From Candidatus Nanosyncoccaceae bacterium (GTDB taxonomy: Bacteria; Patescibacteriota; Saccharimonadia; Saccharimonadales; Saccharimonadaceae), in NCBI GenBank assembly GCA_051891815.1, contig JBJFFO010000010.1:16207-80206 (forward strand): a stretch of 64,000 bases of DNA, written 5' to 3'. The notes beneath the pieces were generated by a model, which searched no databases, had not been told where the DNA came from, and saw nothing but the letters and a program-made list of their open reading frames with translations. Below are positions 4,379 to 43,007 of the stretch, one piece after another. Position numbers and translations under genes: made by a program. Within the stretch, counting starts at the first letter, position 1. Every line of letters begins with the position of its first letter.

Positions 4379-5513
4379 TGTTATCTACCTGTCCTTTAGC
4401 TGTCTTTTTCTTGTTAGTAATATTCTCAAAGAATTCATTATCCTCGAATCTGGTTCTAAGAATTGGACATTTTGGCATTTTAAGCAGATCATCGGCTATT
4501 TCGACTAACTCGTCAGATAGATAAACTTCTTTTCGCCATTCCTCAGGTATCGCATTGTAGCCATAATAAGCACCTGCGAGTTGGCCATAGATTGCGCCAT
4601 TAGTATCGGTGTCTCCACCTAATCTAATTACTGCCATAATACCATCTTTGAAATTATTGAAGTTCATCAAACCCCAGAGAGCAATAGCGAAGGCATCAAC
4701 GATGTATCCACCGAGATTGCATAGTTTCTCTCCGTCTTTTTCTAGAGTTCTATTTATTAGTTTTTCGCAGTTATTGAGATAGAAGTGGTCATATTCTTCG
4801 TTCATAATCCAACGTCCACAATACGAAGCAATATTGTTTTTAGAAAGCCCATGCAGGGCGCAGTAAAGCATTGTTGCAAATAGTGCCGTCGTTGCCTCGG
4901 CGGCAATAGAATTATGTGTTTCGCGACATGATAGAACTGCCATATCGATCGTAGGCGTGATATCTTTTAGATCGATAAATTCTCCGCCATCATTTTTGGG
5001 GTCAATTATAAGATTTCCTTTTTTAAAACCATCTTGGAGGGTTGGGTATTTTTTATTTAAGAAAGTATTAGCGATAATAATCGGTGCGAGACGCATGATC
5101 GCGCCATTACCGGCAGATTCTGTTTTGGGATAATCTTTTGGTACTACTGGGTGAGCGATAAATTCGTCAATAGCACGAGATGTTTGCATTCCCACATCAT
5201 GGGCCGGCTTATCGTCATATGTTCGATAGCCTTCTTCACTCCAGGCCCGGAATCTGCGCATGATGTCATACGAATCATATCCCTCGTTGACTAATAAACT
5301 ATCTGCCATACAGAGCGCCATTTCCGTATCGTCAGTCCAAACGCCTTCTGGCACACGGTAATTCTTATGGAAATGTTCAATTTTATCACCCATTTCTTTA
5401 ATATAAACATCTGACGGATCAGGTAAGAATTCTACGGGCGCACCAAGAGCATCGCCAACCGCGAGACCGACGAGCATGCCGCGAGCTCGATCTTGGTAAT
5501 CACTATTAACCAT
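4371..5513 (-). CDS. ADP-ribosylglycohydrolase (ARH/DraG family)
   Basis: 380 aa. RARGMLVGLAVGDALGAPVEF, WTDDTEMALCMADSL and a C-terminal GGDTDTNGAIYGQLAGAYYG are the ARH-family metal-binding motifs. Confidence 0.88.
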   Translation of the reverse strand: MVNSDYQDRARGMLVGLAVGDALGAPVEFLPDPSDVYIKEMGDKIEHFHKNYRVPEGVWTDDTEMALCMADSLLVNEGYDSYDIMRRFRAWSEEGYRTYDDKPAHDVGMQTSRAIDEFIAHPVVPKDYPKTESAGNGAIMRLAPIIIANTFLNKKYPTLQDGFKKGNLIIDPKNDGGEFIDLKDITPTIDMAVLSCRETHNSIAAEATTALFATMLYCALHGLSKNNIASYCGRWIMNEEYDHFYLNNCEKLINRTLEKDGEKLCNLGGYIVDAFAIALWGLMNFNNFKDGIMAVIRLGGDTDTNGAIYGQLAGAYYGYNAIPEEWRKEVYLSDELVEIADDLLKMPKCPILRTRFEDNEFFENITNKKKTAKGQVDNND

Positions 5514-11830: not shown

Positions 11831-12961
11831 ATGATTAATACACCTACCCCTAAATTTGATTCTGGCCTCACGAATATCATTCTTGAGCTAGAACACCTTA
11901 AGAATCGTCCGCTCAAAAATACCACGAGCGAGAGTGTCTTTTTGCAGCTCAAAAGCTTACTCCATGCAGTGGAAGCGGTCGCTTCTGCGCGCATCGAGGG
12001 GAATCATACAACTATCGCTTCCTACATCGAGAAGCGTGATGACGACAGCCATAAGAACGATGAGCAGATCATCGAAATCTCCAACTTGATCGACGGCTTG
12101 GATTTTATTGATAGATACGTCATGGAAGAGCTTATCTCGGCTGATTTCATCAAAGAGCTTCATCGTGTTGTCGTAGGTGGTCTAACCCATGAGGGCGACA
12201 AGCGTGCAGGTGCGTGGCGCGATGAGCCTCGTTATATCGCCAATGCCAAGCATCAACCACCTGAACCATATGATGTTCCGGATCTCATGCGTGAGCTTAT
12301 CGACTATATCAATAGCGACGAGGGCGAGCAGTATGACTTGCTCAAAATCGCTATCGCCAATCATCGCTTCGTTTGGATCCACCCATTCGGTAATGGAAAT
12401 GGCCGTACCGACAGATTGATGACTTATGCGCTTCTTTGCAAGAAAGGCTATATTGCTCCGAATAAAATGCGCCTCTTTAATCCAACAGCTATTTTTGCAG
12501 GTGATCGTAATAAGTATTACGATATGCTAGCTCTTGCCGATGACTATAAAGACGAGCATATCCTAGAATGGTGCGAGTATTTCTTGTCTGGTGTTCGCGA
12601 CGAGATTAAGAAATCCGAATCTCTTGCCGATGCTGAATTCGTCAATAAGAAGATCCTGCTTCCGTCTGTCGGTCGTATGGAGAAAGCCGGTGTTGTTTCC
12701 AAACTAGAGGGCAATATTCTTGGCCGTGCTGTTCGTCTTGGTGTTATCAAGGCTAGCGACATCAAAGATCTTTGGGGGCGCGAAGTTACTTCCGTTGCTA
12801 TCGCTCAGCAGATCAAGAAACTTCGTGATCGTAACCTTATTAAACCCACTAAAGAGGGTGGCCGTGAATACGAGATCAGCTTTGAAAATAGTGAGCTAAC
12901 TCGCGTTACTCTCGAGCAAATGGATCTTGCCGGTCTTCTGCCGATCCGAGTGGACCGCTAA
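11831..12961 (+). CDS. Fic/DOC-family protein (putative AMPylase) with C-terminal wHTH-like region
   Basis: 376 aa. HPFGNGNGRTDRL matches HxFx(D/E)GNGRxxR, with Asn at the D/E position. The N-terminal ARIEGNHTT block is typical of Fic_N-type proteins. Confidence 0.88.
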   Translation: MINTPTPKFDSGLTNIILELEHLKNRPLKNTTSESVFLQLKSLLHAVEAVASARIEGNHTTIASYIEKRDDDSHKNDEQIIEISNLIDGLDFIDRYVMEELISADFIKELHRVVVGGLTHEGDKRAGAWRDEPRYIANAKHQPPEPYDVPDLMRELIDYINSDEGEQYDLLKIAIANHRFVWIHPFGNGNGRTDRLMTYALLCKKGYIAPNKMRLFNPTAIFAGDRNKYYDMLALADDYKDEHILEWCEYFLSGVRDEIKKSESLADAEFVNKKILLPSVGRMEKAGVVSKLEGNILGRAVRLGVIKASDIKDLWGREVTSVAIAQQIKKLRDRNLIKPTKEGGREYEISFENSELTRVTLEQMDLAGLLPIRVDR

Positions 12962-22787: not shown

Positions 22788-23177
22788 ATGAAGAAGATTG
22801 AAGTAGTTGCAGCAGTAATTAGAAAAAATGACAAAATCTTATCAACTGAGCGTGGTTATGGTGAGCTCGAAGGTTTCTGGGAATTTCCAGGCGGAAAAAT
22901 TGAACCAGGCGAGAATAAAGAGCAGGCCCTAAAGCGCGAAATCATGGAAGAGATGAATGTTGAAATCGAGGTTGAGGATTATATTACGACAGTGGAATAT
23001 GATTATCCAACATTTCATCTTATTATGCATAGTTTTATTTGTGAGCTTGATGGAGATTTTGAATTACTTGAACATCATGCGGCAAAATGGCTTACTCGTA
23101 ATGAGTTGGATGACGTGAAGTGGTGTCCGGCTGACGTTGAGATTGTTGAGAAGATTAAAGAAAAGCCACTTATCTAA
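22788..23177 (+). CDS. NUDIX hydrolase (MutT-like)
   Basis: 129 aa. Nudix box GGKIEPGENKEQALKREIMEEMNV. Confidence 0.88.
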   Translation: MKKIEVVAAVIRKNDKILSTERGYGELEGFWEFPGGKIEPGENKEQALKREIMEEMNVEIEVEDYITTVEYDYPTFHLIMHSFICELDGDFELLEHHAAKWLTRNELDDVKWCPADVEIVEKIKEKPLI

Positions 23178-26046
23178 TTAGATATTCATAAATATCTTCC
23201 CGCACCTCGTGATCTAGCTTTAGGCGCACGTTGACGACGGGAAGCTTTTTGCTTCCGCTTGTCATATACTGTTGTTGCAAATTTTCTGCACGTGCTCTGC
23301 CGAGATAGTAAAAGTCGAAGCCTTCAGCGTTAGCTTTTTTAACAAATAACTCAATTCTGAGATTGCTCTCGTCTGCATGCTTTAGTGCAATGGCCTCTGA
23401 CGAATCTAATCTCACACCATTACGTGTTAACCAGTTAAAATATCCGCGATTGATAAATGCATCTTCGTATTTCGTACTATCTGAAATGCCTTCATCTTTA
23501 TTAAGAGTTACAAAGATAGGACAGGTTCCATGTTTTATTCTGTACCCGTACATAGTAGAGCTATCGTCATGAGGCCATTTTAGCAACCTGCACGCATCGC
23601 GCCTAGAATATTTCTTAAATAATTTAAGATCGTTTTCTGGGTCTCCGCCAATATACTCATCTTCATACCGCAAGAGCGCGTATTCAATAAGGTCATTCAA
23701 AAACAATTTAAGATTTTCTGACAAGCTGTCAGTGAAATCTTGATTTCTGATAATATTACGATCTTCGATATGGCAGAAGCTGAGCGATTTGTATCGATTT
23801 TGGCTTGCGCTAGTTAAAAAGTCGCCCGACATTACATGAATTGCAGAAATAATGTCAGAATCATTAAAGACTCTATACTCGCTGAGCGCTTGCTTAACGT
23901 AGTCAAAATCAATAGAACTCTCTTCTAGTAGCTTTTGTAAAATTACGAGTTCGGTCGGTCTCTTGCCATCTCCAAATTCAATCGAAGCATATTGTAAAAA
24001 TGCCGACTCTTCTTCTGTAAGAGAAGTAAGGTCTTCCTCGACCTTCGCTAGAAAGCCATAAAGAGAGCCGTATGATTTAACGATAATATTCGGGTCAATT
24101 GAGCCGAATCTATAAAAATCTACCAAAGTTGGAGTTTTGCCAATTTTTTCTTTTAATTGAATGTACTCGTCGCGAAGTAATCTAAGCGTCGAGAAGTTTG
24201 CGCGGTTAATAGAATTAAAGATGCGCTGTTCGGCGATACGGTCAAAAGAAATAGTTGAACATCCAGGAATAGTCGGACTCCCCGCGACGATTGTTTTACG
24301 TAGAGTGTCTTTATTCATTGTTTTATCGCCGGAAAGTGCAATTGGAATCATGAAGTTATTTGTGTAGTTTCCAATAAAATCTAGAACGACAACAAAATCC
24401 TTATTTTTTACCTTCCTGAGCCCGCGACCAAGTTGTTGTACGAAGATAATAGCCGATTGCGTTGGCCTAAGCATGATAATCTGGTTGACTTTTGGGATAT
24501 CTACGCCTTCATTAAAAATATCCACAGAGAATATGTAATCTAATGCATTCTCGTCATTTACGTCCGACTCGAGCCTGCGCGCAGCGGCTATACGTTCTTC
24601 TTGGCTACTAAAGCCCGCAAGCGCAACCGTTCTGTAACCTAGAGCGTTAAATTTCTTTGACAATTCTATTGCCTCGTCTATTCTGCTAACAAAGATGAGT
24701 CCTTTAACTCTATCGCCGGCATAGCCATAATACTTCGCATAATTCAAAATATTCCTAACGCGTTCATCTGATGTTAGATATCTGAAGTTTGTCGCCTCGT
24801 CTATCTCTACTCCGTCAATTGCAAGTTCTGCAATACCGAAGTAGTGGAAAGGGCATAATAAATCCGCACCTAAAGCATCTTTCAGTCGAATTTCATATGC
24901 GATATTATGATCAAACAGTTCATAGGTACTTGTGCCATCCGAACGTTCAGGCGTCGCCGTCATGCCTAATAGGAATTTTGGTCTGAAATAATCAAAAATT
25001 ATACTATAACTTGGTGCGCCAGCTCTATGCGCTTCGTCGACAATAATGTAATCAAAATATTCAGATGGGATATTTTTATAACAGTCCTCGCGTGACAAGG
25101 TTTGAATGGTTGCAAAGATAAAATCTGCATTTAAATCTTTTTGTCCACCAGATAAAAATCCGTATGTTCTCGAATTTCCGAATATGCGCTTGAAACTATT
25201 CATTGCACTTCGCGCAATTTGCTCACGATGAATAATAAAAAGCATTTTCTTTGCGTCAAATGCGCGAACGTCGAAAGCTGATAAATATGTCTTACCGGTT
25301 CCGGTCGCAGAAATTAGCAGTGCTTTATTGATGCCATCAATGCGAAGCTTCGCTAGCCTGTCTAGTGCTTCGACTTGCATTTTATTTGGTGCTAGAAGTT
25401 CGCTCTGGGATGAGAATTCTTCGGTTTGCTTTTCGACACGAGCGCGGTTAGTTTTTGCCTTTTTATATCTGACCTCATATTTATCTATCCATTCATTCGT
25501 GAGTTCGCTGGAATTTTGCCAGTTTTTGCGAAACTCGGATAGTATAGAATCGGTGACTTCACCATCGCGCATCGATGAGAATTTGAGATTCCATTCCGTA
25601 TTCGTAGAAAGTGCACTCGCGGTCAAATTTGAACTACCGACGATCATATTATAGATGTCATTATCTTTAAAAATATAACACTTAGTATGAAAATCGCCTT
25701 TGTCGTAAACTTTAACTTCAACATTATCTAATTCTTGAAGCTTACGCAGAGCGGCGGGCTCACTAAAATTAAGGTAATCAGTCGTTAAGATTTTTCCTCG
25801 TACGCCGCGTTCTTTCAGCTCGAGCAGAGTTTTTAGTAGCATTATTAAGCCGCTCATCGTAATAAAAGCGACAGAGAAATAAAACTCATCGCAATTTTCT
25901 AGTGACTTTATAAGATAAGAAATTACTTTTTCGCTATTTTCGGGGTCATTGTACAGTAATCTAGCGTGATATTCTTCGGGCGATAAATAAGATTTATCAA
26001 TAAAACTAGTCTTTAGGGCCTTCTCTAGAAAATCGGAGTTATCCAT
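23170..26046 (-). CDS. PLD(HKD)-nuclease / SF2 helicase / DUF3427-like C-terminal domain fusion (restriction-like)
   Basis: 958 aa. N-terminal FHTKCYIFKDNDIYNMIVGSSNLT (HxK...GSxN). Helicase motifs ISATGTGKTYLSA, VDEAHR and QQLGRGLR. About 330 aa of C-terminal extension. The 3' end overlaps the Nudix gene by 8 nt, convergently. Confidence 0.85.
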   Translation of the reverse strand: MDNSDFLEKALKTSFIDKSYLSPEEYHARLLYNDPENSEKVISYLIKSLENCDEFYFSVAFITMSGLIMLLKTLLELKERGVRGKILTTDYLNFSEPAALRKLQELDNVEVKVYDKGDFHTKCYIFKDNDIYNMIVGSSNLTASALSTNTEWNLKFSSMRDGEVTDSILSEFRKNWQNSSELTNEWIDKYEVRYKKAKTNRARVEKQTEEFSSQSELLAPNKMQVEALDRLAKLRIDGINKALLISATGTGKTYLSAFDVRAFDAKKMLFIIHREQIARSAMNSFKRIFGNSRTYGFLSGGQKDLNADFIFATIQTLSREDCYKNIPSEYFDYIIVDEAHRAGAPSYSIIFDYFRPKFLLGMTATPERSDGTSTYELFDHNIAYEIRLKDALGADLLCPFHYFGIAELAIDGVEIDEATNFRYLTSDERVRNILNYAKYYGYAGDRVKGLIFVSRIDEAIELSKKFNALGYRTVALAGFSSQEERIAAARRLESDVNDENALDYIFSVDIFNEGVDIPKVNQIIMLRPTQSAIIFVQQLGRGLRKVKNKDFVVVLDFIGNYTNNFMIPIALSGDKTMNKDTLRKTIVAGSPTIPGCSTISFDRIAEQRIFNSINRANFSTLRLLRDEYIQLKEKIGKTPTLVDFYRFGSIDPNIIVKSYGSLYGFLAKVEEDLTSLTEEESAFLQYASIEFGDGKRPTELVILQKLLEESSIDFDYVKQALSEYRVFNDSDIISAIHVMSGDFLTSASQNRYKSLSFCHIEDRNIIRNQDFTDSLSENLKLFLNDLIEYALLRYEDEYIGGDPENDLKLFKKYSRRDACRLLKWPHDDSSTMYGYRIKHGTCPIFVTLNKDEGISDSTKYEDAFINRGYFNWLTRNGVRLDSSEAIALKHADESNLRIELFVKKANAEGFDFYYLGRARAENLQQQYMTSGSKKLPVVNVRLKLDHEVREDIYEYLIR

Positions 26047-27535: not shown

Positions 27536-27610
27536 TGGGGATTCGCCAAGCGGTAAGGCAGTGGGTTCTGGTCCCACCATTCGGGGGTTCGAATCCCTCA
27601 TCCCCAGCCA
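27536..27610 (+). tRNA. tRNA-Gln: tRNA-Gln (anticodon CUG), CCA encoded
   Basis: Hand-folded: acceptor tggggat/atcccca (U1-A72), D arm gcc-aagcggtaa-ggc, anticodon arm gtggg-ttCTGgt-cccac, T arm ggggg-ttcgaat-ccctc, then g and cca. Confidence 0.9.
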
Positions 27611-30193: not shown

Positions 30194-31837
30194 ATGCGAG
30201 CTCGACATATCGCGCTATCTTTTGGTGACCAAAAAATCTACGACGACTGTAGTTTTCATTTTGATGCTAGTGATAAAGTTGGCATTGTTGGCGTCAATGG
30301 CGCTGGCAAATCCACGCTTTTTAAGGTGATTCTTGGTCAGCAAAAACTCGATGATGGCGAGATTGAGCTCCCGTCTTTGCGCCTTGGCTATCTGCCACAG
30401 GAAATCAAAATCGACGAAGCGCATGCCGACATTACCGTCTGGGATTACATTGCGATGGCGCGTCCGGTTGATGAGCTTCAAGAGCAACTCAACCAAGAAT
30501 ATGAAAAACTCGCCAAATACCCCGAATCTGGCGCCATTCTTGATCGCATCAACAAGCTTCAGGATCTAATCGACTCATATAATGTTGCGGATTTTGATCA
30601 CGAGCTGCTTAAAATTGTCGAGAAAATGAACCTGCAGGATATTATGGACCGCAAAATGCGCCAGTTGTCTGGTGGCCAAAAGTCTAAAGTCGCCTTCGCG
30701 CGCGTACTTTTTGAAAACGCTGGCCTACTGCTCCTTGACGAGCCGACCAATCACCTCGACGTCGAGACTAAGTCCTTTGTTGCTAACTACCTGCGCAACT
30801 ACAACGGCATGGTGCTAGTTATTTCGCACGATGTTGATTTTCTCAACACCGTCACCAATAAGATTCTTTTCGTCAATAAAACTACTCACAAAACCAAGGT
30901 TTATCACGGTAATTACGCCGTTTTTCGTCGCCAATATGCCAAAGAAAAAGCCGACCAGGATGCGCGCATTAGCGAGCAGGAGCGTGAGATTAAGCGCATT
31001 CAGGAATTTGTCGACCGCGCTCGCGCCGCCAAGCGTAGTAATACGGCACTCATTCGCCAAGGCCATGTGCGCGAAAAGATGCTTGCTCGCAAACTCGCCG
31101 AGCTTGAGACGCGCGAGCAAGAATATCAGCGCGTTTCTATCAATATCTCGCCCAACAAGCAATCGGGCAAAACGCCGCTCGAGGTCCAAAAGCTCAGCTT
31201 CGCCTACCCGAGCAAAGATCCGCTCTATCAAGATCTCTCCTTCAGCCTCACACGTGGCGAAAAATTCCTCATTGTAGGCGAAAACGGCATTGGCAAATCC
31301 ACGCTGCTCAAACTCATCATGGGCGAACTTACGCCTAGCGCTGGTAGTATTCTAACCAGCCAAAACACCACAATTTCCTACTACGCGCAGGAGCTCGAAG
31401 TGCTTGACGAGCGTAAAACTGTTCTCGAAAACGTCCGCAGCTATGATTTTACCGACACCGACATGCGTTCTATCCTCAGTAATTTCCTCTTTAGCGGCGA
31501 CGACGTTAATAAGCGCGTCTCTGTGTTATCTCCGGGCGAAAAAGCCCGCGTTGCGCTCTGTAAAATTCTCACCAAGCGCGCCAATCTTGTAATTCTGGAC
31601 GAGCCAACCAACCATTTCGATCCCGAAACCCAAAAAATCATCGGCGAGAACTTCAAGGATTACAGCGGTACCGTGCTGATGGTAAGTCACAGCCCATCCT
31701 TCGTCGAGCAAGTCGGCATTACGCGTATGCTGGTACTGCCGAGCCATGAAAAAGACCAGCTCCCGCAGGCGCTGATCAAAAACTACTCGCGCGAGCTGCT
31801 TGATTATTACTATTACCTCAACTCAGAGCTAGTCTAG
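30194..31837 (+). CDS. ABC-F family ATPase (two ABC cassettes, no TM domain)
   Basis: 547 aa. GVNGAGKSTLF/LSGGQKSKV/LLLLDEPTNHLD and GENGIGKSTLL/LSPGEKARV/LVILDEPTNHFD, separated by a charged linker. Confidence 0.9.
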   Translation: MRARHIALSFGDQKIYDDCSFHFDASDKVGIVGVNGAGKSTLFKVILGQQKLDDGEIELPSLRLGYLPQEIKIDEAHADITVWDYIAMARPVDELQEQLNQEYEKLAKYPESGAILDRINKLQDLIDSYNVADFDHELLKIVEKMNLQDIMDRKMRQLSGGQKSKVAFARVLFENAGLLLLDEPTNHLDVETKSFVANYLRNYNGMVLVISHDVDFLNTVTNKILFVNKTTHKTKVYHGNYAVFRRQYAKEKADQDARISEQEREIKRIQEFVDRARAAKRSNTALIRQGHVREKMLARKLAELETREQEYQRVSINISPNKQSGKTPLEVQKLSFAYPSKDPLYQDLSFSLTRGEKFLIVGENGIGKSTLLKLIMGELTPSAGSILTSQNTTISYYAQELEVLDERKTVLENVRSYDFTDTDMRSILSNFLFSGDDVNKRVSVLSPGEKARVALCKILTKRANLVILDEPTNHFDPETQKIIGENFKDYSGTVLMVSHSPSFVEQVGITRMLVLPSHEKDQLPQALIKNYSRELLDYYYYLNSELV

Positions 31838-31864: not shown

Positions 31865-32527
31865 ATGAAACGCACCCCTGTTATTTTTCTGCTTGTTATC
31901 ATAGCCTGTCTATTTGTTGCTAGCGGTCTGCATTTTCTCGACGACTACACTAAGCCCATCGCTTATGCGGCTATCGATCCCAAGACCATTCCGGACGGCG
32001 ATAATGTTTGGTATATTGGCGATTCTTACTCGGACAACACTTATATGCGTGCCAAAATTAACGAAACTTTCGGCGATATTTTTGTCGATGTTCAGAGTGG
32101 CAAACGTTTCGCGCGTGATCTTGCGGGCAATCCTGCCGGCACTACGCTACTGCGCAAATACGTCGCCACCGGCCGCAAGCCTACCTATCTCATTTATGAA
32201 TTAGATACTAATGACAGCGACTTGAGCTCTGCTGAGGCTGCGCAAGAGATCGCCGAACTGCGCGAAATTCTTGGGAGCGATACTTATATCATCTTGATGA
32301 CTGCACATTCCATCGCTTACGATAACGATGCTTTTAATAGTGCCGTCTGGCGCGCCGCGGCGAATGACGACCGCATTCTGGTCGCCGACTGGCAGGGCGC
32401 AATTCAGAGGCAAGAAACTACCTATATTTCAAGTGATTTACTCCATCCAAACCAGGCTGGTCATGACCTTCTAATTCAGTTGTTCAAAGAGCAACTCGAC
32501 ATCGCCGCGGAACTGGCCAAAAGCTAG
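31865..32527 (+). CDS. SGNH/GDSL-family hydrolase, N-terminally anchored
   Basis: 220 aa. Signal/anchor helix, WYIGDSYSDN (block I) and DLLHPNQAGH (block V). Confidence 0.75.
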   Translation: MKRTPVIFLLVIIACLFVASGLHFLDDYTKPIAYAAIDPKTIPDGDNVWYIGDSYSDNTYMRAKINETFGDIFVDVQSGKRFARDLAGNPAGTTLLRKYVATGRKPTYLIYELDTNDSDLSSAEAAQEIAELREILGSDTYIILMTAHSIAYDNDAFNSAVWRAAANDDRILVADWQGAIQRQETTYISSDLLHPNQAGHDLLIQLFKEQLDIAAELAKS

Positions 32528-32634: not shown

Positions 32635-33855
32635 ATGGGAGATAGAAAAATGACAAAAGTGGTTCTAATGCCTCTTATCGAGACATTTAGTGACCCGGTG
32701 GAATTTGCGCGCGTATTTAAGAATCACGCTGCAACTGAGCAAGTTAGTGCACGTGCTGCGAGTGCGAAGTTGATCGAGGATTACTTCGCAAATGTGAGCG
32801 ATTATATGCAGGAAGGGCAGGAGGCACACGATGCCTACCTTGCGCTGACAGAAATTGCCAGTCAAAACGACGCCAATGCAAGGCTAGCGCTTTATATGCC
32901 GCTCAACTTCGTTTACGGAGGTTGGGATGATGTAAATAAGGCTTATCAGCAAGCATGGCTCAAGTTACTCGACTATTTAGATGTTCGCGAGTGCTTCAAC
33001 CTCGGCGACGTCTATGAACGCGAAGCTAGCGAAGGCGATTACGAGTATGTCATCAAGTGCTTGCATCTGCTTCCTTGGCTAATTGAGGAAGAGGTCGTAA
33101 GTCCAGAGCAGCTCTTTATGCTACTGGATGCGCACGAGAATCAGCCGATTTTCGCAAGTTGCGTGTATGATTGCCTCGAAGTTTTCGAAGACTGGGGCTG
33201 TCTAAGCGAAAAAGATCTGCTAGAGCTCAAAAGTCGCTATATGCGCTTCGATTATCAGCGTCCAAAGCAGATTCTGAAGAGCTGTACAACCGCTCGAAAA
33301 GACTGGCGCGAAGAATATTTGCGCTCTGTCGACGAAACGCCAGTAACGCTACGCAATATCACGTCGCCGTTTAAGCCAAATCTCATGGCAATGAGCGACG
33401 TGTTCGAAGCGGTATCTCAACAACTCGAACCCGGCCAGGTGGCACTAGTTGGCGGTTCACGCGTCAAAGGTTATAGCTCAGACAACTCCGACTATGACAT
33501 TTGGTATTTTCAGCTTGAGGAGCTCGACCATGTCGATCCTGCGCTGGCGCACTATATCTTCGACACTTTCTGGGTTAGCAAAGATCCGGACATCGAAGCC
33601 AAGCGCGCTGCTATTGCCGAGAAATACATGGCGCTACCGAAAGATTCGGAGCAGTACCGCGACTGCCTGATTCGCATCGAGTCTGATCTGTTACAGTTCC
33701 GTCTGATGCATAAGGGCTTTCCGTATGCGTATGGTTCCGATCTGTCTAAGCCTCTGCAGAAGTATAAAGACATTGATGGTGGCAGTGCCTTCTACGATGT
33801 GCGCTATCGCCGTGTGGCATCGATACTCTATAGCAGATACGTCTATATTCCATAA
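32635..33855 (+). CDS. hypothetical protein with C-terminal Pol-beta-type nucleotidyltransferase motif
   Basis: 406 aa. LVGGSRVKGYSSDNSDYDIWYF fits hG[GS]x9-13Dh[DE]h. About 260 aa of N-terminal helical region are unassigned. AGGAGG RBS. Confidence 0.7.
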   Translation: MGDRKMTKVVLMPLIETFSDPVEFARVFKNHAATEQVSARAASAKLIEDYFANVSDYMQEGQEAHDAYLALTEIASQNDANARLALYMPLNFVYGGWDDVNKAYQQAWLKLLDYLDVRECFNLGDVYEREASEGDYEYVIKCLHLLPWLIEEEVVSPEQLFMLLDAHENQPIFASCVYDCLEVFEDWGCLSEKDLLELKSRYMRFDYQRPKQILKSCTTARKDWREEYLRSVDETPVTLRNITSPFKPNLMAMSDVFEAVSQQLEPGQVALVGGSRVKGYSSDNSDYDIWYFQLEELDHVDPALAHYIFDTFWVSKDPDIEAKRAAIAEKYMALPKDSEQYRDCLIRIESDLLQFRLMHKGFPYAYGSDLSKPLQKYKDIDGGSAFYDVRYRRVASILYSRYVYIP

Positions 33856-33943: not shown

Positions 33944-35161
33944 TTAAAGGACGCTACTGCCGCCAAAGCTGGTAGTGTGGCTCGGAGTTGACAATCCCAG
34001 CTGGCTCCAGTTAATCTGGCGACCCAGCTGCCATAGGGCGCTGAGATACTGCATCTCATTGCCGACGGCATTCTCGTTGAACTTGAGAAAACTCATCACG
34101 AAACGCACGATGCACTGTTCCTGACGCGTATAGGCCGAATTAATGTTCAGACCCAGCATCTTCAGCATCTGTTCGCGGTTTCCAGCGCCAATCTGAGCCG
34201 GCAGCGACGGATCCGTCAGAGCTTCGTTGATTTTCTTGGCATCATAGGCTAACGCGGCCGATACTAAAACACCATAGTTATTGAAAACGTGGTTAATCTT
34301 GTCTTTCAGATCATCGCAGGCGCTCGAAACCATGTCAAAAGGCGGCATGGTCGCACCAAATCCGCCCATTCCTTGACCGCTAACGATGGCCATGAAAGTT
34401 GCCGGATTCGAAATTACCGCCTGTGAAGAATCATACCAGGCGTCCAGCGCCTCGAAAGCAGACTTGATCGCCGGCCACATTTCTGTGTCGACCTTCTTCA
34501 GGAATTTTGCGCGGCGTTCCTTTGTTGCTACACTTCTGATATCCACGCCGTCCAGCGCGCCAAAAATCTCGGCATAGTCGCGGCGGGTAATCATATTGCG
34601 AATCTTGAAGAAATCTGCCGTAATCGGCTCATCCAGGGACTCCGCATACTCCTCCAGCTTTTTCAGCAGAATGTCGGGAACGTTGTAAAGTCCGCAGCGG
34701 TGTGCCATAGCGGCGCGAATCGCCCCGATGTAGGTTGAATCAACTACTTTCAGCACGCCGCCCGTCTTCAGCGACTCCATCCAAGAGCCTTCGTCGGGCA
34801 AAGCCGGCAAAACGCCATCCATATTGAAGGTCGCCATCGGCGCAACCGCCGGTCTCGCCTCAGTTTTCGGAGCTTCCGGCTCGGCGTTCTTGAAGGACTT
34901 CAGGAGCTTGCGCGCCTGTACCAGCTTCAAACCAGCCTCAACCAGCTCATCGGCGGTCAAATCCGCCAAATCATTGACTTGTTCAACACCCAACTCAATC
35001 AGGGTGTTCAGCGTTTCGGTGCCACCGCCATACTCGGCCAGAAAGCGCTTCAGATCCGTAATCGGAGTCTTAGCGACCGGCGCGCCGTCGGCAGTTGCGG
35101 TCTCGGGAGTCTTCATCTCGGTAGTTTCGGACATTTCGGTAGTTTTCTTGACTTCGGACAT
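33944..35161 (-). CDS. hypothetical protein: HhH-like N-terminal module plus alpha-helical domain (operon gene 4)
   Basis: 405 aa from the ATG at 35161 (GGAGG RBS; 13 nt after the upstream stop). LIELGVEQVNDLADLTADELVEAGLKLVQARKLLKSF looks like helix-hairpin-helix. The rest is unassigned. Confidence 0.75.
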   Translation of the reverse strand: MSEVKKTTEMSETTEMKTPETATADGAPVAKTPITDLKRFLAEYGGGTETLNTLIELGVEQVNDLADLTADELVEAGLKLVQARKLLKSFKNAEPEAPKTEARPAVAPMATFNMDGVLPALPDEGSWMESLKTGGVLKVVDSTYIGAIRAAMAHRCGLYNVPDILLKKLEEYAESLDEPITADFFKIRNMITRRDYAEIFGALDGVDIRSVATKERRAKFLKKVDTEMWPAIKSAFEALDAWYDSSQAVISNPATFMAIVSGQGMGGFGATMPPFDMVSSACDDLKDKINHVFNNYGVLVSAALAYDAKKINEALTDPSLPAQIGAGNREQMLKMLGLNINSAYTRQEQCIVRFVMSFLKFNENAVGNEMQYLSALWQLGRQINWSQLGLSTPSHTTSFGGSSVL

Positions 35162-35174
35162 AATAATACCTCCA

Positions 35175-36491
35175 TTAGATGAATAATTTGTCGCCAGGCG
35201 CCGGCCCAAAAGAGACCAAGCGCACTGGAACATCAATGTATAGTGACAAAAATTTCTGACACCACTTTGCTAACTCCTCCCGATCGAGATCGGGCAAGGG
35301 CAAAGTAGTAATCATCGGTTCTACTCGGTAGAGCAATTCCGCATTTAGTTCTGTGCTGTCCGGTAATCTACGCCCATTCAGCTTATAATCTGCCGCGAAT
35401 TGCCATTCGCCGTTTTGGATAATTTGGTCAAACCACGTCAGGCAAAGCCCATCGTAGCGCCAAGGTTTAGTCAGAGAAATCGCGTGTTTTAGCAGGCGCA
35501 AATCAAGCGGTCCCACTCGAACTTCGCCCTGCCAGCGGTTGGTTAGCTTGTGACTATCAGGCAACAGCGAGCTTCGCATCGTAGCGTCGGCAGTTGGAAT
35601 TGGTCCAGCGCCGTGTCTAATATCATAGGCGCGATGTACGCCCAGATCGACGACTTCGCCTCGATAACCTGCTCGCCCCAAAAACATATCAGAAATACCC
35701 GGTAGTGTGCGCAGATTGCTTACATGTGGGCGCAGGCCAACGACATTGTCAGTCAACACGCCATGCGAACGCTCGATGATAGCCTTGCCGTCAAACTTGT
35801 TCAGCACTGCCGTGTACTCTTCTTGCCGGAGCAACTGCCCCAGCTTCAAGAATATTTCGAAAATCTCCTCGAAAGCTACCTCGCTGTGTAGCAAGGCTTG
35901 GCATTCCTCGAAGATTTTCGCATCTTCTGGCAAAACTTCGTTCATCGAGCAATCGCCGTACATTTTTAGTACGCGTTCGCGGTTTGCGCTGAGCCCTTTG
36001 CGTATTAACTCATAGTGCGGTACATCCCTCAGGTAAATTGCTAGGGATGGTTTCTCACAGTATTCGCGATAAGCCTTGCCAACACCAGTTCCTACGGTAC
36101 CGTGCGGTTTATCCTTGAGCATCAACTCATAAAGCTGCGACCAGACCTGATGATAAGGCGTAGCACAGATGCATGATGGACTAGCCGAGAGCAAGCTCCA
36201 CGGCCGAATTGACGCATCATAAGCCTCAAGTGCAGCCGCTTCATTGAGCAGTCCGATCGGCGAAATCACAAAATTAGGCGAAATGTAGGTCGGAACATTG
36301 TCTAGCGTGCCGCATCCCCATTGCGAGAATGCGAACTTGCCATTCTTTCCAACCACGCCATGCGATCCTTGTGCGCCGCCTTCCTTGATTACTAGGCTGG
36401 CATTAATTTTGCGGGCAAGCGCCTGCACGACGCCGCCTTTGCCTCCATCTCCAGGACCAAGGTCGGTGACGCGATAAATTTTGTTTATCAC
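35175..36491 (-). CDS. divergent adenylosuccinate-synthetase (PurA)-fold ligase (operon gene 3)
   Basis: 438 aa, GTG start with AAGGAGG RBS. GDGGKGG (cf. GDEGKGK), GGAQGSHG (cf. GGHNAGH), GTVGTGVGKAY (cf. GTTGRGIGPAY), AYDIRHGAGPIPT (cf. AYSTRVGAGPFPT), LTWFD (cf. TKLD), VSFGP (cf. STGP). Confidence 0.8.
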   Translation of the reverse strand: MINKIYRVTDLGPGDGGKGGVVQALARKINASLVIKEGGAQGSHGVVGKNGKFAFSQWGCGTLDNVPTYISPNFVISPIGLLNEAAALEAYDASIRPWSLLSASPSCICATPYHQVWSQLYELMLKDKPHGTVGTGVGKAYREYCEKPSLAIYLRDVPHYELIRKGLSANRERVLKMYGDCSMNEVLPEDAKIFEECQALLHSEVAFEEIFEIFLKLGQLLRQEEYTAVLNKFDGKAIIERSHGVLTDNVVGLRPHVSNLRTLPGISDMFLGRAGYRGEVVDLGVHRAYDIRHGAGPIPTADATMRSSLLPDSHKLTNRWQGEVRVGPLDLRLLKHAISLTKPWRYDGLCLTWFDQIIQNGEWQFAADYKLNGRRLPDSTELNAELLYRVEPMITTLPLPDLDREELAKWCQKFLSLYIDVPVRLVSFGPAPGDKLFI

Positions 36492-36506: not shown

Positions 36507-37628
36507 TTAGAGCCAGGTGCCAGAACTTGCGTTCTCGATCGGAGTCTCTTCTTTCTCCTCGTCGATATGGCCCGAAGGCTGTAAGTCGGTTTTGTGGACG
36601 AAGATATCGCCTTTTTGCGGAAGTTTGTATCCGGAAGCTTCTTCCAGCTTGCGCTGAGCTCCATATTCTACACGTAGTAATTTACGGGCCAGCTTTTCAG
36701 CCTCGGCTGCCGGCACTTGCGTATCGATCAGGAATTGCTTCAGTTCGGCAGGCTCCAGCGTTGCTTCGGTCAGGCCAATTATCGCGGCTTCGACCTGCGG
36801 CAAATACTTCGTACTACTAATCTGGACAATGTGCGCCTCATCATAGTAGGAACTCCAAAAACCATTGGCATCGGAGTCGACCAACAGGATAAAGGCGTGG
36901 AAAATCTTCTTCATATCCGCAAACAACTGTTCGACGGCCGGCGTATCCGGCAAATCAAAACCGTTGTCGCGCACCGCATCAAAGACTTGGTCGCCAAAGA
37001 TGCGTCGCAGATTTCTCTTGTAGACGGTGCCGTGCATCGACGCATCAGTAATCAGAAAATGATAACCCTTGAGACCGATTTTGTTGATGTAGGCGTCCGT
37101 CAGATATGCGGCTGCATAGACGGAATATTGCGGATCCTCAGGATAATCGCCGCCGCTACCACTCGAAAACAAGTTCGCGCAGTATTCGACGATCTTCTCT
37201 GCGGTCATTTCAAACTGTGGCCGACTCATGATAAAGTCGTCCACTTCGTCGCCAAAAATTCCCAGCGACAGTTGCGGGTCGCAACCGAGCAGTACTTTTG
37301 AGATCAACTCATAAGTCTGCGGTAAGACGCCCAGCATAATCTGTACGTTGTCGCCCATGCTTCCCGTGACGTCGCAGGTACTCTCAATCGGCACCGGCAG
37401 ACCAACGGTTACGCGAAACTTGTCCTCGTAAGGACTAAAGCGCAGCAGGGAACGATGGATCGGCTCAGTGGCCGGATCAACGCTTGGGTGTAGCTTCTTG
37501 GTGGTCGCCGCTTGTCGAGCAGCCTTTTCGGCTACCGATTTGCTTGCACGGCCATCAGATTCGAAGCTGATACCTCTCCTTTCGGTTTCTGTCGTAAAAG
37601 AGTGACGGGTGAAAATAGGATCTCCCAT
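36507..37628 (-). CDS. von Willebrand factor A (vWA)-like protein with MIDAS motif (operon gene 2)
   Basis: 373 aa. ESTCDVTGSMGDN is the DxS/TxS MIDAS strand, followed by alternating beta/alpha-looking sequence. Its ATG overlaps the upstream stop (TAATG). Confidence 0.7.
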   Translation of the reverse strand: MGDPIFTRHSFTTETERRGISFESDGRASKSVAEKAARQAATTKKLHPSVDPATEPIHRSLLRFSPYEDKFRVTVGLPVPIESTCDVTGSMGDNVQIMLGVLPQTYELISKVLLGCDPQLSLGIFGDEVDDFIMSRPQFEMTAEKIVEYCANLFSSGSGGDYPEDPQYSVYAAAYLTDAYINKIGLKGYHFLITDASMHGTVYKRNLRRIFGDQVFDAVRDNGFDLPDTPAVEQLFADMKKIFHAFILLVDSDANGFWSSYYDEAHIVQISSTKYLPQVEAAIIGLTEATLEPAELKQFLIDTQVPAAEAEKLARKLLRVEYGAQRKLEEASGYKLPQKGDIFVHKTDLQPSGHIDEEKEETPIENASSGTWL

Positions 37629-38485
37629 TACGAAATACCACCTTTCATAAGATTCGAGATTGTAGCATCAGTCAAACTGTGCCAAGTTGCAGTCTCGCGA
37701 TTATAGTAAGTAAAAGGATGATACGAAATCCCCCAGTACTTACGAATCACGGTGTAGAGCATACGGTGAGCTTCGGCTCCGCTTAGACCTCGGGACTCGG
37801 CGAAGAATCTCAGATTCTTCATAAAGGCCTCATCCTCCGGCGTTTCGCTAGGAAGCGTAAACTCCAGTATACATTTGCTCGCACGCGCCACATTGTTCCA
37901 TTCGGGGCTGTATTCACGAAGGTTCCAGCCCAGAAAAACCATGCGGTGCATGCGTGGCTCCAATACGACCTGGTCGGGCATAAAGTTAAAGCCAAGCTCC
38001 ACCTCATCGGCGAAGGTCATCAGCTTAAAAAACCTGCCCAGAATCCAAGCCGCGCTACGGGTATCAATTTGGTACTTCTCGGTTAGCTTTGGTAAAGGGA
38101 AAAAATCCCTTACCTTCGCATCACGGATGCCGATTAGATTTGCCTGGCGAAAATTCTGACTCTCGTCCGTAATAAAGCTATCCCAAAGCTCGGGAACCAG
38201 CCAATCATAGTGGACGCGGGCCTTCGGGTTTTTGCGTTCTTTTTGATAGAGGGCCTCGATTTCGTCTGATGCTTTCTTCAGAAATTCCAGCTTCTCGACC
38301 TCAAATTGCATATCGCCGTTGCCAAAACGATTAGTCGGCAGCCTCAGAAAGACCGTCTCTTTGTCGTTTGGCGTACTTGCCAGGTAAATGCGATAGCCAT
38401 CTCCTTGGAAGAGCAAATCTTCTTCGGGATTGGCGATTTTGCATCGCGCGATGCCATGTTTGTCCTTGAGTAACAAATCATTCAC
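37628..38485 (-). CDS. hypothetical protein (operon gene 1)
   Basis: 285 aa, GTG start (a TTG three codons downstream is also possible). No motif recognised. Faint resemblance to the C-lobe layout of a degenerate kinase-like fold (AAWILGRFFKLMTFADEVELGFNFMPDQVVL). Confidence 0.7.
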   Translation of the reverse strand: MNDLLLKDKHGIARCKIANPEEDLLFQGDGYRIYLASTPNDKETVFLRLPTNRFGNGDMQFEVEKLEFLKKASDEIEALYQKERKNPKARVHYDWLVPELWDSFITDESQNFRQANLIGIRDAKVRDFFPLPKLTEKYQIDTRSAAWILGRFFKLMTFADEVELGFNFMPDQVVLEPRMHRMVFLGWNLREYSPEWNNVARASKCILEFTLPSETPEDEAFMKNLRFFAESRGLSGAEAHRMLYTVIRKYWGISYHPFTYYNRETATWHSLTDATISNLMKGGIS

Positions 38486-39199: not shown

Positions 39200-40072
39200 A
39201 TGAAGAAGATTGAAAACGGAATGGTCATAATACCGGTCGACGAATATAATGTCGAACAGCAAATCACATTACTGCGTGGCATGTTTACGGGCTTTAGGGA
39301 CGTCTTTCCACTTAGCCTTGATGCGCTTTCTTTGGCAGTTAGATGCCACAAAGGGCAGTACCGAGAAGGCGGCAAACCGTATATCGCGCATCCGCTCTCG
39401 ATGGCCTGCATGGCTAAGGGCTTGGGGCTGCGCGACGATGCGCTTTATGCCACTATTCTCCTGCACGACGTTTGTGAAGATTGTGGTCTCAAAATTCAGG
39501 AGATTAGTGAGTCTAGCCAAGTTCGCAATGCTGTCCGCCTGATGACTGTCATGCAGTATAGCTACGATCAGACCAAAGCCGATGTGAAGCGTCGCTACTT
39601 CGAGGATCTCTTACAGTCGCGCGAGGCGCTGATTTGCAAGGCGCTGGACCGCATCGACAATCTTGAAAGCATGGCTGGCGTCTTTGAGCGTGAGCGTGTA
39701 CTCAAAAACTGGCGCGAGACTTACCATCTCTTGATGCCAACGCTAAAACGCGCCAAAGAAATGTTCAATATGCGCGATTATGATCTTCTGCATATTTTGC
39801 GCGGGCGTATTCGTTCGGCGCTGGTTTCCATTATGCATCTTTATCAGCTTACTGATGAGGAGATGTATACGCCTTATGGCCATATGAGCTTTGAGCAGAA
39901 ACCCGTTCATAGCGCCGACTATAAACTTGAGAATGAACTCGAGGAATTTCGCGAAGCACACTATCCTCGCGCCGTAGTCGACGTAGCAGTCCCAAAAGTG
40001 CCTAAAAACACTTCATCGGAAACATTGGACGCTAGTAATGCGCCCAAGCTTGACTCATCGCCAATCGCTTAA
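39200..40072 (+). CDS. HD-domain (p)ppGpp-hydrolase-like protein (SpoT/RelA hydrolase family, no synthetase domain)
   Basis: 290 aa. AVRCHKGQYREGGKPYIAHPLSMA...ATILLHDVCED matches the HxGQxRxxGxPYxxHP...LLHDxxED pattern. Confidence 0.8.
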   Translation: MKKIENGMVIIPVDEYNVEQQITLLRGMFTGFRDVFPLSLDALSLAVRCHKGQYREGGKPYIAHPLSMACMAKGLGLRDDALYATILLHDVCEDCGLKIQEISESSQVRNAVRLMTVMQYSYDQTKADVKRRYFEDLLQSREALICKALDRIDNLESMAGVFERERVLKNWRETYHLLMPTLKRAKEMFNMRDYDLLHILRGRIRSALVSIMHLYQLTDEEMYTPYGHMSFEQKPVHSADYKLENELEEFREAHYPRAVVDVAVPKVPKNTSSETLDASNAPKLDSSPIA

Positions 40073-41300: not shown

Positions 41301-43007
41301 ATGGATCTCAATTTAATTCTCTCTATTGCGTTACCCGTGGTTGGTGTCATTGTTCTCGTCGTGCTGTTGTTTGCTATGATCAAAACAGCCAACGCGAATG
41401 AGGCCCTTGTTGTCTCCGGTGTCGGAGCCACCAAAAACGGCAACCCTATCATTAAGCGAGCCGGCGGACGCATCGTCATTCCTTTTATTCAAAAGGCCAA
41501 GTACTTTGATTTATGTACCAGGTCAACCAAGGTTACAGGCGATGTCACCAAGACACAATCCGGCGTGCCGATCATGATTGATTGGGCTATCGCGTATCAT
41601 CCTGACTATGAGGACGAACAGGCACTGCAACGTGCAGTAGCCAACTTCCTCGATAAGGACGAGCGTCAGCTCGAAGCGGTATTAATTGATATCGTTTCCG
41701 GCGGCGTGCGTGCTGTTATCTCTGGACTGACTCCTGAAGCTGTCATGAACAAGAAGGACGAACTTGATGATCAAGTCAAGGCCTCTATTCAGGTTCAGAT
41801 GAAAGAGCTGGGATTCTGTGTCGTTCTCTCGATTCATGAGGTCGTCGACGCTGAGGGTTCTACCTACTACAGCGATTTGGCAGCCAACGATCGTGAGACC
41901 AAGCGTCGCGAAGCAGCCAATATCACGGCGACGAACAATCGTCAGATTCGTGAAACCGCTGCCGTCGAGGATCGCCAGGCGCAGGATGCCGAGTTGAGCG
42001 CTCAGGAGGCTGTTGCGGCCCGTCAGCGCGACAAAGATATCAAGATTGCTCAGTTCAAGGCCGAAACTGAGATTGAGCAAAAGCGCGCCGAGCGTGCTTC
42101 TGATCTGGAAAACCAGACCATCGAGCAACAGCTGGCTGAGCGTGCCGGTGCCGTCGAGGTTGAGAAACAGAAACAGGCCAAGCTCGCCGCTAGCGCTGAG
42201 CAGGAAGTGCTTGTGACTAAAGCCGAGACCAAGAAACGTACCGACGTAATCTCTGCCGAAGCTGCCGCCCAAAAGGGCGTCATCGAGGCTCAGGGCCGTG
42301 CCGATGCTGAGGCTGCCGAGACTACTCGTAAGGCCGAGGCCGAAGCAACTGCGCGCAAGACTACCGCTCAGGGTACAGCCGAAGCGCTTCGCACTGAAGC
42401 AAGCGCCGAAGCTGACGCAACCCGTCAGAAAGGACAGGCCGAAGCTGACGCAACCGAGGCCAAAGGTAAAGCCGAGGCCGAAGCGATTCGTGCCAAAGGT
42501 TTGGCTGAGGCCGAAGCTGCGCGTGCACTCGCCGATGCAAACGCCGCCAACGACAAGGTCAACTTCGAGCTTGAATCCCTCAAGATCGAGACCTCTGCCA
42601 GAGTTGAAGTTGCGACCAATGTCGCCAAGGTCATGGCTGAGGTGGGCAAGAATGCAACCTTCTATGATTTTGGTGGCTCGTCTGGCTCAGATGGCGCCGC
42701 TGGCTCCAACCTGTTCACCCGCGTAATCGGCGATTTGCCGATGCTCTTTGCCAAGGCCAACGCCGAAGGCAAGGCGCTTAACGGCGAAGAAGTACAGGAA
42801 ACTGTCGGCAAGTTGGCAGAATCCTTGCTTGCACCTCTTGCGGGTGCGCTTGGCAAAAAGCCGGCCGTAACGGACGGCAAACCTGCCAGCGATATGCCTG
42901 TCGAGTCTGAAGTTGTAAAACCCGACATCAAGACTACCGAGGTCTCCGACGACGGCTTCGTCGCACCGAGTGGCGAGACTATCCCGCCCGAAGCGCTCGA
43001 CGATTAA
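41301..43007 (+). CDS. SPFH/flotillin-family membrane protein with long Ala/Glu-rich coiled coil
   Basis: 568 aa. N-terminal TM helix, SPFH core (ANEALVVSGVG...GVPIMIDWAIAY...), then AEAEA-type repeats. Confidence 0.85.
   Translation: MDLNLILSIALPVVGVIVLVVLLFAMIKTANANEALVVSGVGATKNGNPIIKRAGGRIVIPFIQKAKYFDLCTRSTKVTGDVTKTQSGVPIMIDWAIAYHPDYEDEQALQRAVANFLDKDERQLEAVLIDIVSGGVRAVISGLTPEAVMNKKDELDDQVKASIQVQMKELGFCVVLSIHEVVDAEGSTYYSDLAANDRETKRREAANITATNNRQIRETAAVEDRQAQDAELSAQEAVAARQRDKDIKIAQFKAETEIEQKRAERASDLENQTIEQQLAERAGAVEVEKQKQAKLAASAEQEVLVTKAETKKRTDVISAEAAAQKGVIEAQGRADAEAAETTRKAEAEATARKTTAQGTAEALRTEASAEADATRQKGQAEADATEAKGKAEAEAIRAKGLAEAEAARALADANAANDKVNFELESLKIETSARVEVATNVAKVMAEVGKNATFYDFGGSSGSDGAAGSNLFTRVIGDLPMLFAKANAEGKALNGEEVQETVGKLAESLLAPLAGALGKKPAVTDGKPASDMPVESEVVKPDIKTTEVSDDGFVAPSGETIPPEALDD

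Follow-up and report, generated by a model that had tools for sequence, protein, structure and literature searches.

We analysed a stretch of 64,000 nucleotides from Candidatus Nanosyncoccaceae bacterium (assembly GCA_051891815.1, contig JBJFFO010000010.1, positions 16,207 to 80,206 of the forward strand; this whole stretch is called the window below). It carries a gene, denoted C, whose product resembles adenylosuccinate synthetase (PurA) and which lies in a cluster of five genes conserved in the candidate phyla radiation (CPR). The genes of the cluster, in window coordinates, are as follows.

37628..38485, minus strand: A, protein-kinase-like protein, 285 aa, the first gene of the operon

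36507..37628, minus strand: B, von Willebrand factor A (vWA)/integrin-betaI-like protein, 373 aa

35175..36491, minus strand: C, PurA-like protein, 438 aa, GTG start, a third-clade member of the adenylosuccinate synthetase superfamily as judged by sequence

33944..35161, minus strand: D, CPR-specific all-alpha protein, 405 aa when counted from the ATG at 35161 (the longest open reading frame, ORF, would start at 35236)

32635..33855, plus strand: E, convergent Pol-beta-fold nucleotidyltransferase, 406 aa, a CPR-specific member of the cluster

The start of B overlaps the stop of A, B ends 15 nt before C starts, and D starts 13 nt downstream of the C stop. The start and the length of C are backed by homologs aligned across 100% of the query. 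Its closest relatives, from 95% to ~41% identical when compared over the full length, belong to Candidatus Saccharibacteria and other Patescibacteria. A search of species-representative genomes yielded 174 matches, and the best 80 of these 174 come from Saccharibacteria, Nanosyncoccus, Falkowbacteria, Uhrbacteria, Moranbacteria, Wildermuthbacteria, Peribacteria and Paceibacterota, with a few oddly labelled bins. The window is a CPR chromosome, not a phage: it includes genes for ribosomal protein, the elongation factors EF-G and EF-Tu, and SecY, and these genes, together with the Saccharibacteria homologs, rule out a jumbo phage, an origin considered in view of the tRNAs and the many orphan genes. 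In public annotation the relatives of C are labelled 'adenylosuccinate synthetase'. A literature search found no paper joining adenylosuccinate synthetase with Saccharibacteria, or with vWA, kinase and phage, and the combination of 'PurA-like' and mycobacteriophage retrieved genome announcements only.

C matches the Pfam family PF00709 over almost the entire profile (E 6.4e-37, 127.7 bits, positions 8-411 of 416), and among the solved structures in PDB it is closest to those of bacterial PurA (3hid, E 1e-18; E. coli 1ade, E 7e-16). All curated PurA equivalog models nevertheless score it below their cut-offs (88.5 vs 402 bits for NF002223, 75.1 vs 395.55 bits for TIGR00184, and 58 vs 445 and 44.8 vs 700 for two further models), and so does the model of PurZ, NF038379 (11.2 bits vs a cut-off of 300). 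In the reverse direction, a profile of the CPR C proteins gives 223 bits to the homolog from mycobacteriophage Tonenili, 105 bits to E. coli PurA and 6.5 bits to phiVC8 PurZ. To our knowledge, the PurA fold supports only two activities, that of PurA, which makes adenylosuccinate, and that of PurZ/PurZ0 in the 2-aminoadenine pathway. On the sequence evidence, the assignment of C to the superfamily is secure, while membership of both characterised families fails; C has the full PurA fold and represents a third, functionally uncharacterised clade beside PurA and PurZ/PurZ0. The initial annotation, made from the letters of the sequence, had set this protein apart from both housekeeping PurA and PurZ, and the rejection by both kinds of curated models bears this out.

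The residues were compared in a MAFFT L-INS-i alignment of the query and 120 database relatives (121 members in total) with E. coli PurA, phiVC8 PurZ and the mycobacteriophage PurA-like protein, and functional residues are numbered below as in mature E. coli PurA. There, D13 is the catalytic base, H41 the catalytic acid, and D333 the determinant of guanine specificity; in the numbering of C itself, D13, K16 and H41 correspond to D15, K18 and H44, and D333 to D355. All motif blocks listed in the initial annotation were found and paired with the E. coli PurA blocks that it had named, both in the HMMER and in the MAFFT alignments. They are located in C at residues 14-20 (GDGGKGG), 38-45 (GGAQGSHG), 131-141 (GTVGTGVGKAY), 240-244 (ERSHG, which indeed stands in place of the EGAQG block), 292-300 (RHGAGPIPT), 315-327 (KLTNRWQGEVRVG), 352-355 (TWFD) and 427-430 (SFGP). 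The residues G12, D13, G15, K16, G17, H41, T128, G274 and D333 are invariant in 121/121 members, and S414 and G416 are kept in 118/121 and 120/121, respectively. The earlier claim that the nucleotide-binding scaffold and the guanine-specificity aspartate are preserved thus holds for the whole family, D13, K16, H41 and D333 being among these invariant positions. In the guanine-recognition set, the invariant D333 and the nearly invariant S414 are accompanied by a changed K331, which is W in CPR, and H or C in phages.

The situation is opposite for the residues that hold the other substrates. Aspartate recognition in E. coli PurA relies on R131, R303, R305, T300, T301 and V273, and binding of the 5'-phosphate of inosine monophosphate (IMP) on N38, T129, T239 and R143, according to mutagenesis and crystallography. 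In C, the aspartate determinants R303, T300, T301, V273, R305 and R131 become a gap, W, Q, H, V and T. Among the phosphate ligands, N38, T129 and T239 are replaced by Q, V/I and S, and the position of R143, contributed by the partner subunit, has no conserved residue in the 121-member family. These changes are themselves conserved: N38Q, Q224H, V273H, T239S, T301Q and the gap at R303 occur each in 121/121 members, T300W in 115/121, and K331W in 119/121, and the other conserved replacements are E14G, A39G, G40S, T42G, T129I/V, R131T/S, L228T and R305V/I. The E. coli loop G298-A-T-T-G-R-R-R-R306 reads N-R-W-Q-G-(gap)-E-V-R in C, with the E position variable in the family; hence, the loop is one residue shorter and contains two arginines (R319 and R325 of C) as opposed to four. 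In the E. coli enzyme R303 touches both the O2' of IMP and the free aspartate, and the loop situated above the reactants touches the aspartate (PMC8342488).

The initial annotation had proposed that the aspartate-binding loop was rewritten with the loss of most arginines, and this stands under the rigorous alignment. The remodelling is in fact wider than it had described, as N38, T129, R131, R143, Q224, T239, V273 and K331 are changed as well. The aspartate residues have not simply been conserved at shifted positions in the clade, since R319 is missing from almost all phage members. For the same reason, the candidate role of R319 as a substitute for R303 in aspartate binding was rejected as a general solution; the phage loops read, for example, 'GMWQG' or 'NEFQG'. 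Judging from the alignment, the pockets for the amine and for the nucleotide are both remodelled, and the residues of phosphotransfer are spared.

The best GenBank phage matches to C are 'PurA-like' proteins of ~200 cluster C mycobacteriophages, with ~28% identity. In Tonenili, the PurA-like gene is preceded by two genes with homology to A and B (pairwise E 4e-7 and 3e-10), and profile hidden Markov models (HMMs) made from CPR sequences only recover these neighbours with E 1e-17 for A and 2e-18 for B. A tblastn search of GenBank phages with B, D and E gave nothing at 1e-3, the link between B and phages being visible only with profile HMMs. A scan of IMG/VR provided 69 viral contigs; H273 was built into the search pattern, so that its presence there is not independent evidence. 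In 65/69 of these viral loci B is upstream of the PurA-like gene, usually adjacent to it. When the neighbouring ORFs were clustered, A-like proteins proved to be the one other recurrent family (29 loci), all others being observed in at most seven (<=7) loci. In the phage A proteins, a J domain bearing the HPD motif is located N-terminally of a degenerate kinase-like domain. Phages lack D and E, the phage core consisting of A, B and C.

The phage homologs (n = 66, plus Tonenili) keep D13, K16, H41, Q224, T239, D333 and R306. Position 38 holds Q and position 273 H, R303 is always missing, and residue 305 is hydrophobic; an aromatic residue occupies position 300 in nearly all of them, and position 301 has mostly Q, with A in a minority. 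Neither R131 nor R143 is kept, and H, C or W stands in place of K331. Relative to the phage members, the CPR proteins have the additional changes Q224H, T239S, A39G and G40S. The signature of the clade, displayed by C, includes D13, Q38, H41, an aromatic residue 300, the R303 deletion, a hydrophobic residue 305, R306 and D333, with D13 kept in all CPR and all complete viral members. In a published viral PF00709 tree of 767 sequences, 251 fall into the PurA group, 151 into the PurZ group, and ~365 (52 of them prokaryotic) were left as 'other PurA homologs' (PMC12884076). The existence of these ungrouped sequences is consistent with a third uncharacterised clade.

Several viral loci have features of their own. 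In L146:3403-5925 (IMGVR_UViG_3300035181_001311) an intein that contains a LAGLIDADG homing endonuclease (PF14890, PF14528) splits the clade gene directly behind the P-loop region; inteins usually occupy conserved sites of genes important to the host. In the T4-like contigs L097, L111, L112, L120 and L124, genes for a neck protein (PF11649) and the gp15 tail-sheath stabiliser (PF16724) are situated between B and C, so that virion structural genes and the module are interleaved in this subset. The loci L087 and L089, catalogued as viral, contain all five CPR-type genes, the L089 contig being 408 kb long; L088, also catalogued as viral, ends after C and has A-C only, with CPR-type residues in C. 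These three are either misfiled CPR contigs or CPR-infecting mega-phages that carry the module.

Gene order was studied by calling ORFs in 83 CPR loci and searching these iteratively, the five proteins of the window being the queries. The complete order A>B>C>D>E< is seen in 67/83 loci, and the remainder are mostly truncated contigs. The genes are tightly packed, the median intergenic distances being 3 bp for A-B, 22 bp for B-C, 11 bp for C-D and 66 bp for D-E, and B is directly upstream of C in 81/83 loci. Relatives of C with 73% and 48% identity have the same neighbours within the cluster and different flanking genes. In the window, the cluster is flanked by genes for an ABC-F-type double ATPase (30194-31837, plus strand) and a GDSL-like hydrolase (31865-32527, plus strand) on one side, and for an HD_4 (RelA/SpoT-type HD) phosphohydrolase (39200-40072, plus strand) and a flotillin/SPFH protein (41301-43007, plus strand) on the other. 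Since these flanking genes are present in the 73% relative (L004) and not in L005, they are not part of the module; in particular, the HD_4 gene adjoining the cluster is not conserved in L005. A PADLOC search with the five cluster proteins matched none of the known defence systems. Two contigs of the Saccharibacteria metagenome-assembled genome JAEETK01 (L009 and L010) each have a copy of the cluster, with 51-52% identity to the query, which reflects either duplication or strain heterogeneity within the bin.

The most constant partner of C is B. By sequence, the 41 members of the B family considered have no Pfam match, and neither single-sequence nor profile searches give a match in PDB. The AlphaFold2 model of B is confident (pLDDT 93.1, pTM 0.91), and a Foldseek search of PDB with it retrieves 118 matches (E<=1e-3), the top ones being MIDAS-bearing betaI/vWA domains from integrin beta subunits (probability 1.0); in BFVD it retrieves viral VWFA proteins. 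According to the model, B has the vWA fold. Residues of the MIDAS type, D86-x-T88-x-S90, D127, E140, E164 and D195, are invariant in the CPR and phage homologs. The N-terminus of B carries the motif M-G-x3-[F/W]-x4-[Y/F/W], which in CPR takes the form M-G-x-x-x-F-[S/T]-x-x-x-[Y/F]. The protein begins with MG in 113/120 independently called relatives, the seven exceptions resembling mis-called starts, and the same start is seen in Tonenili B and in all ~60 full-length phage homologs, many of which begin with MGGG. Among 1.84 billion representatives, this module-specific family accounts for 744 clusters (50% identity). At the other end, the CPR B proteins have an acidic disordered tail (window 36507-36560) that ends with [W/Y]-[L/I] in 116/120 sequences, the window B ending with W-L, and phage B proteins end differently; this tail may serve D or E, the CPR-specific partners, as a docking peptide.

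Pfam Pkinase is matched by 2/41 A sequences (40 from CPR and one from Tonenili; best E 8.5e-9). Only W147 and H180 are invariant in A and the catalytic loop is degenerate, and thus A is probably a pseudokinase. It is homologous to the J-domain and kinase-like proteins that precede B in phages, while itself lacking the J domain. In one locus A and B are fused into a protein of 679 aa (P0380, L160:1323-3362), in which the A HMM matches residues 51-293 with 139 bits and the B HMM residues 337-669 with 347 bits. This fusion supports physical association of A and B; its contig is short (3.9 kb), and an assembly or frameshift artefact is possible.

An N-terminal SAM/HhH-like domain is found in 26/40 D members, the rest of the protein being all-alpha, and the AlphaFold2 model of D (pLDDT 77) has no significant neighbour in PDB (best Foldseek E 0.36). 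D begins with M-S in 102/120 relatives and has long disordered linkers at residues 1-31, 93-109 and 394-405. In E the pattern G274-S275...D286-x-D288 is invariant, PF18765 is matched by 19/40 members, and sequence searches of PDB give weak nucleotidyltransferase matches only; its N-terminal domain is conserved as well.

If C were an ordinary adenylosuccinate synthetase, one would look for its metabolic surroundings. An E. coli PurB query had no match either in the window or in CPR loci totalling 1.11 Mb, and in the same sequences an E. coli PurA query found the C family only, with no second PurA-type gene. De novo nucleotide synthesis is reportedly missing from 93% of Patescibacteria genomes, and host RNA has been proposed as the source of all four ribonucleotides (bioRxiv 10.64898/2026.06.21.733656). 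If nucleotides come from host RNA, the obvious need for conversion of IMP to adenosine monophosphate (AMP) is removed. A transposon-sequencing study of Southlakia, a cultivated Saccharibacterium, names no PF00709 gene in its text or accessible supplements. Finally, the clade gene with the same partners is present also in phages whose hosts own PurA.

Taken with the residues, these observations make it very probable that C is not a bona fide PurA. It would be the catalytic subunit of a conserved multi-protein module rather than a housekeeping adenylosuccinate synthetase. Since the P-loop, D13, H41, K16 and D333 are intact, C is expected to bind a guanine nucleotide and to move its gamma-phosphate onto the oxo group of a bound purine nucleotide. 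In the second half-reaction, an amine other than aspartate would attack, and the nucleotide may not be free IMP; all known aspartate-holding residues are replaced or deleted, and the replacements are conserved in both CPR and phages. Because the vWA/MIDAS gene B essentially always precedes C and is usually itself preceded by A, we suggest that C acts on B or together with B (and A), as a complex. On balance, the residue pattern favours, somewhat more than it disfavours, a ligase using a non-aspartate amine. This is close to what the initial annotation had predicted, namely a ligase that activates a purine 6-oxo group and couples it to something other than aspartate, or that acts on a different nucleotide; the prediction gains support from the rejection by the curated models, from the kept catalytic and replaced aspartate-binding residues, from the conserved module with its non-metabolic partners in CPR and phages, and from the failure to find PurB in the window or the 1.11 Mb of CPR loci.

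The likeliest single candidate for the amine, suggested by the genomic context, is the alpha-amine of the N-terminal Gly2 of B, exposed after Met removal, so that the product would be a conjugate of a protein and a purine nucleotide. We put this forward tentatively, as a specific guess that is rather unlikely to be correct in full. In such a reaction, GTP would serve to phosphorylate a guanine- or hypoxanthine-type nucleotide at its 6-oxo group, the Gly2 amine would displace the phosphate, and the N-terminus of B would become covalently joined to the purine C6, yielding a post-translational 'purinylation' parallel to QueC-like deazaguanylation; phages and parasitic CPR bacteria could use it during host takeover. 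A precedent is provided by Cap9, a QueC-like protein that joins 7-deazaguanine to Gly2 of its partner CdnD, with the conserved N-terminus M(G/S)G(G/S)GG (bioRxiv 10.1101/2025.04.06.647259).

Several observations weigh against the Gly2 step, or against replacement of aspartate in general. Universal conservation of Gly2 in B does not hold for the divergent branches: among their full-length representatives only 54/89 start with MG. Triads exist where B begins with MAKETF (L157) or MARYEDTRTFD (L159); in the PurA-like partner from L159 the pocket residues 273 and 301 are F and L. The N-terminal segment of B is ordered in the AlphaFold2 model (pLDDT 88) and is not predicted to be a floppy tail, and the A-B fusion P0380 has neither the MG motif nor a free B N-terminus. 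The CPR members hold two arginines in the loop, R319 and R325, and the remodelled loop of a PurA-like protein leaves room for a new mode of aspartate binding. The window also encodes an 828-aa protein with an adenosine/AMP-deaminase domain (6077-8563, minus strand; PF00962, E 4e-24), and thus IMP may be formed and a need for its conversion to AMP is conceivable. More generally, what we say about the function of the clade is read from residues and context.

The same residues would serve as well if C joined the purine nucleotide to a small molecule, such as a polyamine, an amino sugar or an amino acid different from aspartate, with B and A being no more than a scaffold, a sensor or a regulator. 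The product, a modified nucleotide, would then be used in signalling, as a toxin or antimetabolite, or on the way to a modified nucleic-acid base. PurZ demonstrates that phages do retool the PurA fold for new nucleotide products, the triads persist where B lacks Gly2, and the gained His, Trp/Tyr/Phe and Gln might be regarded as typical of sugar or heterocycle binding. On the other hand, no recurrent lyase, polymerase, glycosylase or transferase is found beside the phage module, where only A, B and C recur, and both the near-obligatory vWA adjacency and the N-terminal motif of B would be left unexplained. We consider a small-molecule amine possible, though doubtful as a specific claim, and about as likely as the Gly2 step. 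A further variant dispenses with the purine adduct altogether: C would hydrolyse GTP to remodel or load the vWA protein, acting as a switch or chaperone, and in phages A would connect the module with Hsp70. Pairs of an NTPase and a vWA/MIDAS protein, for example MoxR-vWA and BchI-BchD, are indeed a recurrent theme; the J domain with the HPD motif in phage A, the loss of the IMP-phosphate ligands, and the interleaving with neck and tail-sheath-stabiliser genes in the T4-like subset point in the same direction. However, plain NTP binding does not require the 6-oxo-activation residues D13, H41 and Q224 (His in CPR), which are conserved, the nucleotide-substrate domain is conserved in full length, and the invariant remodelled pocket suggests a specific ligand rather than decay. 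Thus a switch of this kind seems improbable to us.

Still less probable, to the point that we hardly expect it, is a genuine divergent adenylosuccinate synthetase, operating in salvage or in the purine nucleotide cycle with a rearranged aspartate loop and incidental neighbours. It would agree with the full-length PF00709 match and the intact catalytic residues, with the public label 'adenylosuccinate synthetase', with the supply of IMP by the window deaminase-domain protein and with the retention of R319 and R325 in the CPR loop. Contrary to it, the scores are four- to five-fold under the curated PurA equivalog cut-offs, and six of the six documented aspartate determinants and three of the four IMP-phosphate ligands have changed to conserved alternatives, while R319, as mentioned above, is not retained by almost all of the phage members. 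The lack of a PurB match in the window and the 1.11 Mb of CPR loci, the reported lack of de novo synthesis in 93% of Patescibacteria genomes with the origin of all four ribonucleotides from host RNA proposed for the phylum (bioRxiv 10.64898/2026.06.21.733656), and the silence about PF00709 in the text and accessible supplements of the Southlakia study speak against it as well, as does the synteny with vWA and kinase-like genes, kept from CPR to phages of mycobacteria and other hosts.

The proposed ligase can be compared with several known systems. With PurA (EC 6.3.4.4), C shares the full-length fold, the GDxGKG P-loop, Asp13, His41, Lys16, Asp333 and SxGP, and probably also the first half-reaction, the GTP-dependent phosphorylation of a purine oxo group, as these residues suggest; it differs in being embedded in a vWA/pseudokinase module and not in purine metabolism. 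PurZ/PurZ0 (NF038379) is similar in being a PurA paralog whose nucleotide pocket has changed and which phages have adapted to a new product. It is however shorter (~340 aa), keeps N38, Q224, V273, T300 and Arg where R305/R306 align, and still uses aspartate; Ser replaces the catalytic Asp13 in PurZ (PMC12884076). PurZ is also linked to datZ/mazZ/dpoZ, whereas C is full-length, keeps Asp13 and is linked to vWA and kinase-like genes: PurZ-type linkage (datZ/mazZ/dpoZ, dutZ/dmtZ) was not found around C, only the A and B families recurring there in CPR and phages. The PurA-like protein of cluster C mycobacteriophages (Tonenili gp104) shares with C Q38, H273, W300, Q301, the R303 deletion and D333, and differs by keeping Q224, T239 and A39-G40, by the J domain on A, and by the absence of D and E. 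RefSeq (e.g. NC_031080.1 157315-158643) and PHROG 1211 label such mycobacteriophage genes '2-aminooxy adenylosuccinate synthetase'. This label is contradicted by the kept Asp13, the lost aspartate pocket and the missing PurZ features, and, by the sequence, it appears to be an annotation transfer error inherited from PurZ.

The likeness to Cap9/QatC of type IV CBASS and QatABCD is an analogy of logic only, in that a nucleobase-biosynthesis ligase whose usual substrate is a small amine may have been redirected to Gly2 of an adjacent partner. Cap9/QatC has a PP-loop ATPase fold, adenylates a carboxylate and functions in defence of cellular hosts, whereas Gly2 of B is not universal and the adduct considered here is a proposal. 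MoxR-vWA, the Mg-chelatase pair BchI-BchD and CobS-CobT resemble the module as P-loop NTPases genetically coupled to a MIDAS vWA protein, the difference being that those NTPases belong to the AAA+ class, while C is a SIMIBI-class protein of the PurA fold with the residues for substrate activation kept.

Other features of the window located outside the cluster include two tRNA genes and several enzymes.

1947-2022, plus strand: tRNA-Thr(GGT)

27536-27610, plus strand: tRNA-Gln(CTG)

A 958-aa protein (23170-26046, minus strand) combines a PLD nuclease, an SF2 helicase (ResIII/Helicase_C) and DUF3427, an architecture typical of restriction- or defence-type enzymes. An ADP-ribosylglycohydrolase (4371-5513, minus strand; PF03747, E 3e-62) and a Fic/DOC-family protein (11831-12961, plus strand; PF02661, E 9e-19) are protein- or nucleotide-modification enzymes within a very small genome.

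The third PurA clade is large, judging from the 744 clusters of its partner family B, and it is distributed over Patescibacteria and many phages, including jumbo phages, T4-like phages and ~200 sequenced mycobacteriophages. Counting its genes as PurA leads to an overestimated capacity for purine interconversion in metabolic reconstructions of CPR. If conjugation of a purine nucleotide to a protein were true, it would be a categorically new chemistry. The pseudokinase-vWA-PurA-like module is common to two groups that exploit bacterial cells, and this suggests a shared chemistry of host manipulation or self-regulation.

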